From: Parcubacteria group bacterium Gr01-1014_20
Lineage (GTDB): Bacteria > Patescibacteriota > Minisyncoccia > UBA6257 > 2-01-FULL-56-20
Direction: 5' to 3'
Length of the DNA stretch: 64,000 bases
Assembly (NCBI GenBank): GCA_007376265.1
Contig: VMFW01000009.1
Coordinates: forward strand, 70,592-134,591
In this document: positions 16,017-52,215 of the stretch, piece after piece
How the letters are laid out: every line of letters begins with the position of its first letter
How positions within the stretch are numbered: position 1 is the stretch's first letter
Made by a program: the position numbers and the translations under genes
Notes under the pieces: model-generated
What the model was told of the DNA's origin: nothing
The model's database searches: none
What the model saw: only the letters and a program-made list of their open reading frames with translations

Positions 16017-16210
16017 ACGTGTGCGCGGGACAGGCAATTGAACGTCGCTCATATCCATTCGCTCCCAATAGGGCTTCCGCCCTCTTGTCCTCGCTTACGC
16101 TCGGTCACCCCAACGGGGAAACACTAGCGTTTTTCCCCGACCCCCTTTCGTGTTCAACTCCTGTCCCTCAGGATAAAATTTGCACCGCAAAAGCGGTCCA
16201 AATTTTACAT
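16017..16210. repeat. degenerate tRNA-Leu 3'-end fragments (one direct, one inverted) adjacent to tRNA-Leu; possible att-site scar
   Basis: 16019..16042 (tgtgcgcgggacaggcaattgaac) copies the tRNA 3' end at 16211..16236 in direct orientation, with the first 15 nt identical. 16153..16168 (gttcaactcctgtccc) is an inverted copy of the T-arm/acceptor 3' strand. Neither folds into a complete tRNA. Confidence 0.5.
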
Positions 16211-16211
16211 G

Positions 16212-16294
16212 TGCGCGGGACAGGAGTTGAACCTGCATGCCCTTGCGGGCGCTACCACCTCAAGGTAGTGCGTCTGCCGTTTCGCCACCCGCGC
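16212..16294 (-). tRNA. tRNA-Leu(GAG), type II with long variable arm
   Basis: Minus-strand sequence GCGCGGGTGGCGAAACGGCAGACGCACTACCTTGAGGTGGTAGCGCCCGCAAGGGCATGCAGGTTCAACTCCTGTCCCGCGCA. Acceptor GCGCGGG/CCCGCGC, D-loop like the Leu consensus, anticodon loop CTTGAGGT (GAG), long variable arm, T-loop TTCAACT. CCA not encoded. Confidence 0.8.
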
Positions 16295-17439: not shown

Positions 17440-17594
17440 CCGGGCTCCATAATTTTAAAAAAATTCTTAAAAAATGGAGCGGTTTGTTAGCTAGATCTTC
17501 GCTTTTGGCCTCGAGAATCATGCCTTGCGGCATAAAAATTTAACCAAAAGCAAAAATCTATCGACACGATTTGAACCGAAGTTCAATCGTTTAG

Positions 17595-19088
17595 TTTAAT
17601 TGTTCCACGCACAGCTTCCGCTACGCGTGCCTTGTTACGACTTAGCCCATGTCACCGATCTGAAGTTAGTCCTACTTGCGTAGGCCTTCACCTCTTACCG
17701 GCTCCCTTGGCTTGACGGGCAGTGAGTACAGGACTCGAGAACGTATTCACCGCGCCGTGGCTGATGCGCGATTACTAGCGATTCCGGCTTCATGAGGGCG
17801 AGTTTCAGCCCTCAATCCGAACTGGGGCTAGGTTTTTGGGATTAGCTCCGTCTTGCGACTTGGCAACCCTTTGTCCTAGCCATTGTAACATGAGTGTAGC
17901 CCAGGGCGTCAAAGGGCCATGCTGATTTGACGTCATCCCCTCCTTCCTCCCAGCCTTTTGTTCACGAAGTGAACAAAAGGAATTAGGAATAATGAATCAG
18001 GAATCATGGTTTTTATTTCACAATTCACAATTCGAAATTCCAGATTCGCTTTTGCACCTCCTGTGCAAAAGGCTGGGCAGTCCCGTGTGACACTTGTAAC
18101 ACACGATAGGGGTTGCGCTCGTTACCCCACTTAAGGGAACACCTCAAGGCACGAGCTGACGACAACCATGCAGCACCTGGACTAGCGGTCCTTGTGAGAG
18201 GGCCAACCTTTCGGCCGGCTTTCCGCTAGAATTTCAAGCCCTGGTAAGGTTCCTCGCTTGTCGTCGAATTAAACCTCATGTTCCACCGCTTGTGCGAGTC
18301 CCCGTCTATTCCTTTGAGTTTTAAGCTTGCGCTCGTACTTCCCAGGCGGCCTGCTTAACGCGGAAAGTCCCAGTGTGCTGCCTTCGCCTTTGGTATTCCG
18401 CACGATATCAACGGATTTCACCCCTACACCGTGCGTTCTACACACCTCTGACTCCCTCTAGCCCGATCGTATCTTTGGCACTTCCACCGTTAGGCGGTGG
18501 GCTTTAACCAAAGACGCACCGAGCCCCCTACATACTCTTTACGCCCAATAAATCCGGATAACGCTTGAGGTCTACGTATTACCGCTGGTGCTGGCACGTA
18601 GTTACCCACCTCTTTCCGTAAGGCACTCATTTGCATTGTTACCTTACTACCGCAGTTTACGACCCGGAGGCCTTCTTCCTGCACGCGGCGTCGCTCCATC
18701 AGGCTTTCGCCCATTGTGGAATATTCTCGACTGCTGCCTCCCGTAGGAGTACGAGCCGTGTCTCAGTCTCGTCGTTGGAGATCGGGCTCTCACCCCTCCT
18801 ACCGGTCATAGCCTTGGTGAGCCATTACCTCACCAACTAGCTGATCGGACCTAAGCCGATCCCAAAGCCCCTTGCGGGTTTACTCTTGCGAGACCATCGA
18901 GTATTACCTCACCTTTCGATGAGCTATTCTCGACTTTGGGGTACGTACTAGGGTGTTACTAACTCGTTCGCCGCTAAACTAATAAATCCGTCGCCTTGAT
19001 GTAATCGCAACTTCTTCAAAATTAGTTCCGCACGACTTGCATGCCTTATCCACGCCGCCAGCGTTCATCCTGGACCAGGATCAAATCC
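17595..19088 (-). rRNA. rrs: 16S ribosomal RNA (about 1.5 kb) with an about 115-nt expansion insertion and an atypical 3' tail
   Basis: Minus strand begins GAGGATTTGATCCTGGTCCAGGATGAACGCTGGCGGCGTG. Contains the universal GTGCCAGCAGCCGCGGTAATAC and AAGTCGTAACAAGG blocks. 3' terminus reads ...GCGTGGAACAATTAAAC instead of ...GGATCACCTCCTT. The insertion at 17956..18070 is flanked by pairing cccagcc/ggctggg. Confidence 0.85.
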
Positions 19089-19149
19089 TCAAAAAAACTT
19101 TTCAACTTCGCTCAAGATTTTCATCTTGAGTTGATCGAAAAGTTAGTAA

Positions 19150-22512: not shown

Positions 22513-23079
22513 TTAAATGTGTAATATTCTAGTTTTTCTTAGCGCAAGAAAGAGGCTGCTTATGTGCATTTCTTGAACAAATTCTTTCTTATCAATAAGT
22601 TTCAGTATGTCAGTTACACTCTTAAATTCATATTGAACCACTTCGAATGGATTGATAACCGGAATAGTGACTTGTTTTGGATTAGTAACAAGGTATGTAT
22701 AAGAGTAATTGGTTTGATTGGCTGGGTTAGGCGAAAAAATCCCTAGTAGAGTAAATTTACCAGTATAGCCAACTTCTTCCAGAAGCTCTCTTTTGGCGGC
22801 GCTCAAATGACTCTTGTCGTTTGGGTCTACGGTGCCGCTAACAAGTTCGGCAACTATTTGCTTAGTTCCGTGTCTATACTGGCGCGTTACTAAAATTTCG
22901 TTTTTACGATTGACAACAACCATACGCACCCAGTCTGGATATTCGAGCACATAATACGGCGAAATAACCTCGCCAGACTTAGTTCTGCAAGAGTCGGCTC
23001 GAACTTTGATCCATTTATCTTTCAAAACATACTTTGAGCTTGTTGTACTCCATTTTTGGAGTTTTTTTACTTTTTTCAC
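22513..23079 (-). CDS. NUDIX hydrolase
   Basis: Nudix box around AAKRELLEEVGYTG. Confidence 0.65.
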   Translation of the reverse strand: MKKVKKLQKWSTTSSKYVLKDKWIKVRADSCRTKSGEVISPYYVLEYPDWVRMVVVNRKNEILVTRQYRHGTKQIVAELVSGTVDPNDKSHLSAAKRELLEEVGYTGKFTLLGIFSPNPANQTNYSYTYLVTNPKQVTIPVINPFEVVQYEFKSVTDILKLIDKKEFVQEMHISSLFLALRKTRILHI

Positions 23080-23120
23080 GGTTGATTAAGTTTACTGCCG
23101 ATGGCGTTTTCTGACCTAAC

Positions 23121-23154
23121 AACATTCCAACATTCTCAAGAATGTTGGAATGTT
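23121..23154. repeat. 34-nt palindromic element copy 1 (ACATTCCAACATTCT-CA-AGAATGTTGGAATGT)
   Basis: Perfect 15-bp arms with a 2-nt centre, 2 nt after the stop of the histidine kinase gene. Sister copy inside miaA at 51834..51865. Confidence 0.7.
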
Positions 23155-23156
23155 GA

Positions 23157-24755
23157 CTATGTGATTTTTCGGAGCTTAACAAAGAATTTACTCCCCTTTC
23201 CTTCTCCGGGTGATTCTGCCCAGATTGTTCCGGCGTGATCGGTCACTATCCGTTTGGCGATGTAGAGTCCCAGGCCAGTACCCTTGATTTCTTTCTTTAC
23301 TCTCTCATCACGGATGAACTCCTGGTCGAAAAGATGAGGCAAAAGAGTTGGGCCGATACCAAGACCGGAGTCGGTGACTGAAAAAGTGACGTAACCGTTT
23401 TCCTCCTTGGTTTCCACCTTCACAAATCCCTGGGGGGTGTATTTGATGGAATTTTCCACCAAATTGGCGAGGACTTGCTTCAGTTTTTGTGGGTCGGCGC
23501 TAACGCTCGCCTCGGTTCCGGAGGTGAAGGAGAATTCCAGTTTTTTGGCATCGGCTTGAACCTTTAATCCGTCTATGACGTTCTGAACTAAATCTTTTAT
23601 TTTTACGTTCTCGAATTTGTAGTCCATCTTCCCCTCTTCTACCTTGCGGAGGTCAAGAAGAGTGTTGATGAGGTTGATAAGCTCGTCGGCGGAGTTTTTC
23701 ATCTTCTGGAGAGTTTCTTTGATTTTGTCATTAATGGGACCGTAGATACCGTCCATGATGATGGAAGCAAAGCCTTTGATAGTGGCAAGCGGAGCTTTGA
23801 TCTGGTGAGCGGAGAGAGCCAACATTTGGCTTTTGAAACGGCTGAGGCTTTCGAGTTCGGTGTTAGCTTTTTGGAGTTTTTCGGATAGTTCCTGGAGTTG
23901 TTCGCGCTGTTTTATTTCTTTTGTAACTCCCCTTATTACTAGCAGGCCGGTAACGATTGTGCCGATTAACACCACCCCATTCACCAGGATCTGTCTTACG
24001 GATTCTGAAGTGAGTAATTGAATAAAGATTGTAATATTTAGAAGTATGACAGCAAGCTCGGCCAAAATAGCTTTGAGATTTAATAGCCGATGCTTCACCA
24101 TTGCGTAAGTTGTGAAAACTATAAATGGCAGGGTATACAAATGGCCAAGCCTAACAGTAGACAAATCTTCGAATATAACGTAGTTGAAAAAACTGAAAAC
24201 CAATACCAGCAAGAAAGTGAAGACCAAGCCGAAAGAAAGGTAGCGCCATTGAAGCTTCTCCACCCCCTCCGACTTCTGATATTTTTTTACTAAGGAATAG
24301 AAGGCCCATAATATACATCCACCAACGAAAATTCCGAAAAATGGAATAGCCGGACCAGGTTTAGGACCTAAACTCCCAGATTGATTGGGTTCGAGTTTCT
24401 CAAAAATTAAGGGGGACAGAGTTAATGCAATAATTACAACTAGGAAAACGATTAATGGTGTTAGTAGTTTACTGGTCAAAACTTTTCTTTTTTCTAAGAA
24501 TGTATATATAAACAGAAAAAAGAAAAACGCATGTAAGGCAGCAAACAACATTGTTAAGCGAGCAAGCCAGAGAAAGTTATTTCCGACAAAAGCTGCAAAA
24601 TTTGTCCCAATCCAAAAGACTTGGCTCAATACAAATGCGCCAAAGAGATACCTAGAAACGCTTTTGGGCGAGTATCGTAAAACAATAATACCAAGAGAAA
24701 TATTGGCAATAATCGCGATAACAAAAAGTGGAAACTCAACTTGTATGTAGGTCAT
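23157..24755 (-). CDS. sensor histidine kinase (multi-TM sensor, HisKA + HATPase_c)
   Basis: About 7 N-terminal TM helices; H-box LSRFKSQMLALSAHQIKAPL; G-boxes SGLGIGPT and GTGLGLYIAKRIV. Start overlaps the stop of the upstream oxidoreductase (ATGA). Confidence 0.8.
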   Translation of the reverse strand: MTYIQVEFPLFVIAIIANISLGIIVLRYSPKSVSRYLFGAFVLSQVFWIGTNFAAFVGNNFLWLARLTMLFAALHAFFFFLFIYTFLEKRKVLTSKLLTPLIVFLVVIIALTLSPLIFEKLEPNQSGSLGPKPGPAIPFFGIFVGGCILWAFYSLVKKYQKSEGVEKLQWRYLSFGLVFTFLLVLVFSFFNYVIFEDLSTVRLGHLYTLPFIVFTTYAMVKHRLLNLKAILAELAVILLNITIFIQLLTSESVRQILVNGVVLIGTIVTGLLVIRGVTKEIKQREQLQELSEKLQKANTELESLSRFKSQMLALSAHQIKAPLATIKGFASIIMDGIYGPINDKIKETLQKMKNSADELINLINTLLDLRKVEEGKMDYKFENVKIKDLVQNVIDGLKVQADAKKLEFSFTSGTEASVSADPQKLKQVLANLVENSIKYTPQGFVKVETKEENGYVTFSVTDSGLGIGPTLLPHLFDQEFIRDERVKKEIKGTGLGLYIAKRIVTDHAGTIWAESPGEGKGSKFFVKLRKIT

Positions 24756-51303: not shown

Positions 51304-52215
51304 ATGTCAAGTATCAAGAAACCGCCTAGGATACTAGTGGTTTTAGGCCCTACGGCCAGTGGGAAATCGGCTTTGGCGATTCGACTCGCCAGGAAGTTTC
51401 GAGGCGAGATAATCTCAGCTGATTCGCGGCAGGTTTATCGCGGAATGGATATCGGAACCGGAAAAACCATGAGAAAAGAGATGGCAGGCGTCCCCCACCA
51501 CCTGCTTGACGTCGCCTCGCCAAAACAAAAATTCACAGTAACGCGCTATCAAAAATTAGCAGGCAAAGTCATCAAAGATATTTTGAAGCGTGGCAAGCTG
51601 CCGATCGTCTGCGGAGGAACAGGACTTTATATTGACGCGCTAATTTATGACTGGAAACTGCCTGAGGTAAAACCCAACTGGAGACTTCGCGGTGAGCTCG
51701 AAAAAAAATCGATTGGAGAACTTTTCCGGCGACTTGAAAAACTGGACCCAAAGAGGGCAACGGAAATAGACAGGCATAACCGCCGCCGACTAGTGCGAGC
51801 GTTGGAGATTGTGATAACGACTGGACAATCCTCACATTCTAACATTCTGCAGAATGTTAGAATGTCTGAATATAACGTTTTAAAAATTGGGGTTAAATTG
51901 TCAGACGAAGAATTGAAGCGGCGGATAAAAAATCGATTGCTAGCGAGAGTAAAGCGAGGAATGGTTCGGGAGGTGAAACAGTTGCGCGCTCAAGGTTTGA
52001 GCTGGAATCGCTTGGATAGTTTCGGGCTCGAGTATCGATGGGTTTCAAAATTTTTGCGAGGCGAGATTTCCAGATCAGAAATGATTGAGAAATTGAATTC
52101 GGAAATTTGGCACTACGCCAAGCGGCAAATGACTTGGTTTAAAAGAGATAAAAATATGAAGTGGATTTTAAAAAGCTCTGAAGCGGAGGGGTTGACTAGG
52201 GGGTTCCTGCGGTAA
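51304..52215 (+). CDS. miaA: tRNA dimethylallyltransferase (contains an in-frame palindromic insertion)
   Basis: P-loop VLGPTASGKSALAIRLA, DSRQVYRGMDIGTGK. Residues SHSNILQNVRM are encoded by the 32-nt palindrome at 51834..51865. Confidence 0.85.
   Translation: MSSIKKPPRILVVLGPTASGKSALAIRLARKFRGEIISADSRQVYRGMDIGTGKTMRKEMAGVPHHLLDVASPKQKFTVTRYQKLAGKVIKDILKRGKLPIVCGGTGLYIDALIYDWKLPEVKPNWRLRGELEKKSIGELFRRLEKLDPKRATEIDRHNRRRLVRALEIVITTGQSSHSNILQNVRMSEYNVLKIGVKLSDEELKRRIKNRLLARVKRGMVREVKQLRAQGLSWNRLDSFGLEYRWVSKFLRGEISRSEMIEKLNSEIWHYAKRQMTWFKRDKNMKWILKSSEAEGLTRGFLR
51834..51865. repeat. 32-nt perfect palindromic element copy 2 (ACATTCTAACATTCT-GC-AGAATGTTAGAATGT) inserted in frame within miaA
   Basis: 30 of 32 nt identical to the copy at 23121..23154, with compensatory C/T and G/A changes that preserve perfect self-complementarity; the centre creates CTGCAG. 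Confidence 0.7.

Follow-up and report, generated by a model that had tools for sequence, protein, structure and literature searches.

The two perfect palindromes in the 64-kb window of Parcubacteria DNA analysed here (the window being the whole 64,000-nucleotide stretch) may be understood as solo copies of a dispersed element made of four hexamers (ACATTC/GAATGT). Our main reading, to which we give a probability of about 50%, is that this element is a binding site for an ArsR/MarR-like winged-helix protein and that it has been dispersed by insertion, in the manner of Rickettsia palindromic elements (RPE) or of REP sequences. Both the four-hexamer anatomy and the partner winged-helix gene are additions to what had been read from the sequence originally. 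The family is apparently undescribed so far: literature searches for the DNA string of the element and for its three possible peptides found no description, and those on CPR, MITE and REP topics surfaced only known analogues (RPE, Coxiella MITEs, REP and PARCEL).

Much of bacterial diversity belongs to the Patescibacteria, whose gene regulation and mobile DNA are poorly known. The protein family to which the element is tied is uncharacterised and numbers over 5000 sequence clusters, and the same peptide is read from the element within TsaD, MiaA, MnmA, PGK, aldolase, UvrC and TspO, a recurrent insertion that could in practice confuse protein-family alignments. If the protein does bind the element, the pair would provide a testable handle on transcription or chromosome organisation in Patescibacteria. 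The element also offers a clean natural system in which to study how palindromes are kept perfect.

The perfect palindromes reported at both sites by the first-pass annotation (Table 1) are indeed present in the sequence and are unmatched in shuffled versions of it. Copy 1, CAACATTCCAACATTCT-CA-AGAATGTTGGAATGTTG, has perfect 17-nt arms around a 2-nt centre, so that its extent had been set one base pair too short on each side, and copy 2, ACATTCTAACATTCTG|CAGAATGTTAGAATGT, has perfect 16-nt arms. The two differences between the copies are compensatory, as had been proposed, the C/T in one arm being mirrored by a G/A in the other. A degenerate consensus with up to 3 mismatches matches only these two copies in the window, where the chance expectation is a mean of 0.00 matches (100 shuffles), and no extra half-sites of the palindrome stand out there. 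Folding predicts a 14-16-bp hairpin from either strand of both copies, with energies of -23.8 kcal/mol (z -5.7) for copy 1 and -18.2 kcal/mol (z -4.5) for copy 2. At the Rfam gathering score neither copy has a match, the only passing hits of the window being a 16S rRNA and three tRNAs. Copy 1 lies 2 nt past the TAG stop codon (23157-23159) of the minus-strand kinase gene, and 42 nt separate its other end from the GTG start codon (23079) of the NUDIX gene; it has no T-run, no terminator was called at it and no promoter was called nearby. Copy 2 leaves the frame of miaA intact, as first annotated, and is translated as S-HSNILQNVRM-S (residues 177-188). The MiaA encoded in the window is identical to a protein of Parcubacteria group bacterium Gr01-1014_20, from which the window comes.

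Table 1. Positions, in window coordinates, of the two palindromes and of the genes that host or adjoin them
Feature	Position	Strand	Description	Basis
Copy 1, palindromic element	23120..23155	.	CA-spacer subtype, centre CA; intergenic	Sequence, chance expectation, hairpin energy, relatives
Copy 2, palindromic element	51834..51865	.	TA-spacer subtype, centre GC; in frame within miaA	
miaA	51304..52215	+	tRNA dimethylallyltransferase; host of copy 2	Pfam IPPT 4e-74; PDB MiaA 2.6e-61
Histidine kinase gene	23157..24755	-	7TM-HisKA-HATPase; stop codon abuts copy 1	
NUDIX hydrolase gene	22513..23079	-	Downstream of copy 1	Start GTGAAAAAAG kept in orthologues

The idea that the two copies belong to a larger repeat family is borne out by hundreds of further copies in genomes and metagenomes. 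A scan of species-representative genomes with an exact pattern returned at least 119 loci, a metagenome scan built to catch variants returned at least 120 more, and both scans pooled hold at least 262 distinct copies after removal of duplicates. Among the matches listed, the hosts are mostly Patescibacteria (Saccharibacteria, Paceibacterota and many 'Parcubacteria' lineages); Verrucomicrobiota, Kiritimatiellia and Phycisphaerae are also found in the listed matches, as MAGs on long contigs, together with one Gammaproteobacteria MAG and one Pacearchaeota MAG. The locus carrying the archaeal label (L080) has neighbour genes in common with a Patescibacteria contig (L001, UBA6102), and the label is probably a binning error. 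The G+C content is 52-59% at the Verrucomicrobiota, Kiritimatiellia and Phycisphaerae loci, 27-48% at the CPR loci and about 34-37% in the element itself. Carriage by phages was rejected, viral contigs giving 0 matches to the element pattern. The number of copies per genome appears to be low, perhaps a few to tens, and in this the element is unlike classic selfish repeats.

Alignment of the copies resolves the unit into four hexamers, [ACATTC]NN[ACATTC]T-NN-A[GAATGT]NN[GAATGT], in which the two hexamers of an arm are direct repeats at a spacing of 8 bp and the two arms form an inverted repeat across a free 2-nt centre (GC, TG/CA, TA, AT or CG). The invariance of these 24 bases across copies is built into the sample, the hexamers having been fixed by the search patterns. 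The 2-nt spacers define CA, TA, TC, TG, CG and TT subtypes. Outside the core, positions 17-19 are rich in A 5' of the element and in T 3' of it, the flanks of the family being only weakly T-rich, and the whole element spans 32-38 bp with ends of the form A-N-A-ACATTC. Contigs from different assemblers begin (L250) or end (L033, L058, L060 and L080) inside the palindrome; the element fragments metagenome assemblies.

Copy 1 had been described as sitting exactly at a gene end, and proximity to stop codons turns out to be general for the family. Under a simple ORF model, 59 copies lie between tandem genes, 16 between convergent and 7 between divergent ones, and about 27 lie within an ORF. About half of the adjacent gene 3' ends fall within 12 nt of the element, whose sequence often contains the stop codon itself (as ACA TTC TAA or a central TGA), and the distances from the element to start codons are broad.

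Residence within genes is likewise a general trait. Among the matches listed, 28 of 262 copies (about 11%) are embedded in long ORFs, defined by at least 70 open codons on either side of the element, and 26 of these 28 are read in a single frame, x-HS[N/H/Y/D]IL[Q/E/K]NV[G/R]M-[S/L]; the RPE-like in-frame behaviour first proposed from copy 2 therefore extends to the family. The alternative frames encode TFQHSAECWNV and NIPTFCRMLEC, both Cys/Trp-rich. By Pfam assignment, the host proteins with several copies are TsaD (3), TspO (3), class II aldolase (2) and glycosyltransferases (2), and the single-copy hosts are PGK, MnmA, MiaA, Sua5, a PurL-like protein, PIF1 helicase, 6PGDH, UvrC, GluRS, a Mur ligase and an FAD oxidase. 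Compared with PDB homologues, class II aldolase (FBA) has 8 extra residues exactly at HSNILKNV and MnmA has 10-11 extra residues at the element, and PGK has an enlarged loop there when compared with solved structures. In at least four loci, L107 and L206 among them, the TspO gene has an in-frame element at one common site.

Several known kinds of element were considered and rejected. Direct repeats of 3 nt or more are not in excess at the element boundaries, and an excess of 2-nt repeats is explained by the palindromic flank, which dismisses a target-site duplication. Of 43 apparent 'solo arms' in 1.6 Mb of loci, 40 belong either to complete palindromes in which one hexamer is mutated or to copies truncated at the end of a contig, and single arms bound no gene; a parent IS with single-arm termini was rejected on this ground. 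A portable promoter was dismissed as well: TANNNT hexamers show no peak at a fixed distance downstream of solo copies, and no promoter was called near copy 1. Mobility is inferred from the diversity of contexts, since no recent pair of filled and empty sites with alignable flanks was recovered.

Clustering of all nearby ORFs yielded a sole recurrent gene family next to the elements, encoding a protein of 88-99 residues with the consensus KTxKQLERHFKGxANHxRIxIL...NFKTISEHTRRLVQAGLLNKKYxGRxVxHSLSPYGKxFxKFxxTF. Among the matches listed, about 20 of 119 genome loci contain this partner gene, as do 49 of the 252 loci when all are counted. Of the 12 loci scored that have an intact upstream copy, 9 place the start of this element 56-64 nt before the ATG (range -50 to -97), and the element typically ends about 25-30 nt before it; in some loci TTGGAA is followed, after 17 nt, by a -10-like hexamer. 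In most loci the stop codon of the partner gene falls within a second element (ACA TTC TAA or central TGA), and because of this overlap the C-terminal T-F (or TFQHS) of the protein is encoded by the element. Among 33 further members of the family, F88 is invariant and T87 nearly so.

By sequence and by predicted fold, the partner belongs to the ArsR/SmtB-MarR group of winged helix-turn-helix proteins. Pfam HTH_5 matches it at 5e-6, above the cut-off, and NCBIfam HTH_metalloreg at 46 bits, below the cut-off of 55; its PDB sequence matches are CadC, ArsR and HlyU, and its structural model (pLDDT 89.5) retrieves MexR, MarR, HlyU and CadC in Foldseek. No cysteine is conserved in the family, nor does any occur among its invariant columns; the family comprises at least 5630 clusters at 90% identity, named only as generic HTH proteins. 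The partners of Kiritimatiellia and CPR are up to 77% identical, and this sequence similarity suggests transfer of the whole unit of element and gene between these groups. The partner gene itself has no tblastn match within the 64-kb window.

Pfam assignment of the neighbouring genes (62 lying 5' and 74 lying 3' of elements) shows enrichment of the partner HTH family only, the others being diverse housekeeping genes, and a coherent regulon was rejected on that basis. Recurrence of TspO, NUDIX and MsrB genes beside elements hints at a regulon component. No transposase family was found among the element neighbours, and no catalytic or mobilising protein is known for the element. TspO adjoins the partner gene or lies within about 2 kb of it in four loci (L003, L075, L229 and L251). 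In one locus (L197, 3025-6712), five elements surround the partner gene within 3.7 kb, one per intergenic gap; the genes between them, which include a CysRS gene, the wHTH gene and a gene for a 94-aa Cys-rich protein, give a cassette-array-like layout. Compared with dispersed copies, the elements preceding the partner gene have diverged further (L038, L032 and L086). The hexamer change in L038 is symmetric (ACACTC...GAGTGT), a possible handle on co-evolution of protein and site.

That palindromy is maintained, as had been argued from the two copies of the window, is upheld by the covariation of the arms in the family and by a compensatory A-T to C-G change in a miaA orthologue. Position 10 of the arm is complementary in 95% of copies vs 62% expected from base composition, and position 1 in 0.66 vs 0.36. 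The corresponding values for positions 17, 18 and 19 are 0.75, 0.47 and 0.60 vs 0.61, 0.28 and 0.51 expected. Among copies picked for a non-A at position 9 in one arm, C at this position is paired with G in 56 of 77. The spacers of the two arms match in 86 of 112 orientable copies, the remainder being hybrids of two subtypes in which an orientation bias was looked for and none was found. Beyond position 19 the flanks are random on average; the palindrome is nevertheless extended by at least 5 bp in 20 of 129 copies and by at least 7 bp in 13 copies, with a different sequence in each.

Orthologous in-gene copies in miaA, TsaD and TspO keep 24 of 24 hexamer bases at near saturation of synonymous sites (39-56% identity), in a set retrieved by a pattern that demands intact hexamers. 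Their spacers switch symmetrically, from TA/TA to TC/TC or the reverse in miaA and between CA/CA and TC/TC in both TsaD and TspO. Tuning as an RNA hairpin was rejected, the variable pairs showing on the sense strand no excess of G.U (8) over A.C (15). A genome-wide homogenisation of copies was likewise rejected, on account of the mixed copies of GCA_964366545.1, which holds both a CA/CA copy and a TT/TC miaA copy. Foreign DNA occurs exactly at the centre of the element in three copies (L195, L231 and MiaA P0007), and the centre appears to be a hot spot of breakage or insertion. These insertions measure about 22-33 nt, or 8 codons (L195, ~397-450; L231, ~2170-2250; and MiaA P0007). Symmetric spacers, an exempt centre, outward growth of the palindrome and breakage or insertion at the centre fit the typical behaviour of DNA hairpins or cruciforms.

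For the miaA copy, the proposed gain of about 10 residues did not hold. The MiaA of the window aligns without gaps with 3d3q and 2zm5 through the element segment, 2qgn being one residue longer; other CPR MiaA proteins have the same length with unrelated residues at this position (e.g., TGKPNPTAAQAQRKKTRYE), and the window protein exceeds one relative by 4 aa. The element-derived peptide is common to a clade of MiaA orthologues at 62-80% identity, in some of which it is intact (SSHSHILENVRMSE) and in others decayed (SSHSNILQKAGILK, SAYSNVLENNRISK). From the peptide shared by the clade and the unchanged length, the miaA copy is one old replacement at the base of the clade that brought no net gain in length. 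Because some of the MiaA copies decay (P0003, P0004, P0006 and P0008), selection on in-gene copies is not universal. The miaA orthologue of L120 carries ACATTCTCACATTCT-TG-AGAATGTGAGAATGT, again a perfect palindrome, and differs from the window copy by the compensatory A-T to C-G change, the remainder of the gene being 75% identical to the window gene and 52% identical at third codon positions. In the AlphaFold model, residues 177-188 form a low-confidence linker between a helix (160-173) and a strand (191-197) with pLDDT of 61-66, falling below 50 at 182-184; the model fits a peptide that occupies a tolerated loop. One orthologue, P0005 (L121, 10001-11011), has an extra 15-residue insertion, FLPFGGAQDKNLPYK, three codons past the element peptide; the MiaA linker therefore tolerates further changes in length.

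The site of copy 1 shows gain and loss among relatives. A 99% identical strain (L250) has the element at the same junction of kinase stop and NUDIX gene, its contig breaking within the palindrome, and the element is present at this junction also in L248, whose NUDIX is 87% identical. It is absent from the more distant L249, which has the same nitroreductase-X-kinase-NUDIX order and an unrelated 13-bp hairpin at the site. It is absent, too, from the rearranged junction of L246, where hicAB lies upstream of NUDIX and a canonical element just downstream of it; the same assembly has a TT/TC copy in miaA. In this close relative (L246, 3084-3977), the kinase gene upstream of NUDIX is cut to a 68-aa HATPase fragment and a hicB-hicA toxin-antitoxin pair fills the junction.

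The element resembles several known systems without coinciding with any of them. RPE are about 100-150 bp long, imperfect and confined to Rickettsia, and to our knowledge they have no linked protein gene. The element has in common with them dispersed palindromes that occupy intergenic positions as well as in-frame positions in housekeeping genes, and the lack of a known transposase and of target-site duplications. It differs in being perfect, built of four hexamers, found across phyla and tied to a winged-helix gene; at 32-38 bp and with no Rickettsia among the matches listed, it does not qualify as an RPE by length, nor apparently by homology. The in-frame, tolerated peptide (26 of 28 embedded copies; +8 aa in FBA, +10-11 aa in MnmA) is a likeness of behaviour, not of homology, and in MiaA the element replaces residues, unlike the peptide addition of RPE. 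A parallel for the covarying arms is the quasi-palindrome template switch of E. coli genetics, in which a change is copied from one arm to the other during replication within a hairpin. This would produce the symmetric spacer changes with an exempt loop centre seen here, yet it is a mutational mechanism and not a family of elements.

REP sequences, too, are short palindromes (20-40 bp) situated just downstream of genes without target-site duplication, and the REPtron, like the present unit, has a dedicated protein gene flanked by two repeat copies, the protein recognising the repeat in the REPtron case. REPs are G+C-rich and imperfect with a GTAG or CGTC tag (PMC3733652); they are extragenic and of high copy number, and their partner is a HUH Y1 transposase (RAYT). 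The present palindrome is instead A+T-rich (about 34-37% GC), perfect and of low copy number, with 11% of its copies in genes, and it ends in A-N-A-ACATTC without a tag. Its partner is a non-catalytic-looking ArsR-like protein. A REP/RAYT system was rejected, since the flanked gene encodes an 88-99-aa ArsR/MarR-like winged-helix protein and no transposase occurs among the neighbours.

With MITEs (Correia elements; Coxiella MITEs, PMC5896051) the element shares small size, a non-autonomous nature, inverted termini, in-frame insertion within genes and putative sites for protein binding. MITEs have internal sequence between their termini, target-site duplications and an origin from a recognisable IS, whereas the 'termini' here abut with 2 nt between them, with neither a duplication of 3 nt or more nor a single-arm IS; a classic MITE was rejected on both the duplication and the parent IS. 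Nor does copy 1 show the G+C-rich stem and T-run of an intrinsic terminator. ArsR/SmtB repressors with a 12-2-12 operator are also small winged-helix dimers with an inverted repeat in their own promoter region, and the inner hexamer pair of the element is spaced 10 bp centre to centre in a comparable way. The partner has the ArsR fold; unlike these repressors it lacks metal-site cysteines, or any conserved cysteine suited to metal or thiol sensing, and scores below the NCBIfam cut-offs. Unlike their operators, the element is a 32-38-bp site with four half-sites, scattered at gene ends and inside unrelated genes and not placed at one defined operon.

We propose that the element is the cognate binding site of the 88-99-aa winged-helix protein and that it would also mediate autoregulation of the partner gene, given that its hexamers are strict, that its inner inverted pair is spaced at 10 bp and that it is linked in a fixed manner to a gene for a winged-helix dimer. 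The partner gene with one element in its promoter region and a second over its stop codon would then form a 'master' unit, from which solo copies would be distinguished by arising through insertion, as indicated by the gains of 8-11 aa in other hosts, the gain and loss at the site of copy 1, the at least 262 contexts and the spread across phyla. New copies would insert without target-site duplication and persist where harm is small, right after stop codons or in variable surface loops of proteins. The frame bias (26/28) leads us to infer that selection leaves copies after stops and in the one hydrophilic loop frame (HSNILxNVGM). After insertion the hexamers would be kept intact, which is consistent with selection for protein binding, and the spacers, the centre and the immediate flanks would drift, both arms usually changing together with the exception of the unpaired centre. 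This joint change may stem from hairpin-templated correction by quasi-palindrome template switch or from selection for a DNA hairpin.

In the window itself, copy 1 would have been gained at the kinase/NUDIX junction within a shallow lineage and is probably a protein-bound or hairpin boundary between two co-directional genes, and copy 2 would be an old, fixed, in-frame resident of the MiaA linker. Candidate roles of the bound sites are a boundary between co-directional genes, a roadblock and nucleoid organisation. More tentatively, and with the odds somewhat against it in our view, element and gene could constitute a hitherto overlooked two-part mobile system that moves between phyla, plants binding sites at gene ends and in frame in essential genes and preserves them over long spans of evolution, by a spread that is not transposase-like. 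If so, the reduced Patescibacteria genomes would have their transcription, or their chromosome structure, rewired or partitioned by a mobile protein-binding site.

Other explanations were weighed against this dispersed binding site. The element might be the ordinary operator of a regulon, in which a winged-helix repressor of the stress type acts on sites at NUDIX, TspO and MsrB genes that are kept by selection and not spread by mobility. The geometry at the partner gene fits autoregulation, copy 1 lies upstream of NUDIX at 42 nt, NUDIX genes follow elements in three other loci (L012, L015 and L020), the partner gene is near TspO in three loci (L075, L229 and L251) and adjoins it in L003, and MsrB, AhpC, 6PGDH and transketolase are among the neighbours. 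Even so we find this explanation unlikely: 59 Pfam families are represented among the 62 genes lying 5' of elements, with only the partner enriched, the elements hug stop codons far more than starts, and no positioned -10 element lies downstream of solo copies. Furthermore, the presence of an identical 32-nt site in at least 16 unrelated housekeeping proteins, as an insertion of 8-11 aa in one frame, is beyond point mutation, and near-identity of sequence across phyla of 27-59% GC points to transfer. We consider it distinctly unlikely that the element is a protein-independent hairpin of REP type, acting as a compact bidirectional RNA terminator or 3'-end stabiliser to which the winged-helix gene is linked incidentally. 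Such a role would suit the stable predicted hairpins, the placing of about half of the adjoining 3' ends at 12 nt or less, the excess of tandem (59) and convergent (16) over divergent (7) contexts and the A-rich 5' and T-rich 3' flanks, and the in-gene copies would be masked by translation. A terminator, by contrast, needs no identical set of 24 hexamer bases across phyla in all recovered copies; the sense-strand count of G.U against A.C (8 vs 15) indicates that palindromy is not RNA-tuned, no Rfam family matches, and copy 1 has neither T-run nor terminator call. The fixed overlap with the start region and stop of the partner, in a family of more than 5000 members, is hardly incidental.

Very unlikely, in our judgement, is a role as chromosome-organising or centromere-like sites from which the protein, once bound to dispersed palindromes, would perhaps spread, by analogy with ParB at parS, MatP at matS and the ArsR-like AspA of plasmid pNOB8. 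The low copy number, the presence of sites inside genes, the lack of regulon logic and the grouping of sites near the gene of the protein itself (5 within 3.7 kb in L197) agree with such a function, as does a Foldseek match to the pNOB8 centromere-binding protein (4rs8, TM 0.79 normalised to the target). MarR and ArsR repressors nonetheless score better in the fold search, no gene for a partner NTPase lies beside the winged-helix gene in the loci with neighbours listed, and the patchy spread across phyla looks accessory and not core. Chance similarity or an assembly or sequencing artefact is effectively refuted. Assemblers do struggle with the palindrome, inside which contigs end (L033, L058, L060, L080 and L250), but zero chance matches are expected, assemblies made independently in separate studies show the element at an identical codon of miaA, TspO, TsaD and FBA, and it is translated in frame within conserved proteins.

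Two further features of the window were noted apart from the palindromes. A complete 16S rRNA gene lies at 17593-19096 on the minus strand, and neither a 23S nor a 5S gene reaches the Rfam threshold anywhere in the 64 kb; from a 16S gene standing without them in the window, the rRNA genes of this genome appear to be unlinked. Finally, a perfect inverted copy of the last 16 nt of the minus-strand tRNA-Leu(GAG) gene lies about 50 nt downstream of it (GTTCAACTCCTGTCCC; 16152-16167, 16211-16294), and this repeat could be the remnant of an integration site or a partial tRNA duplication.
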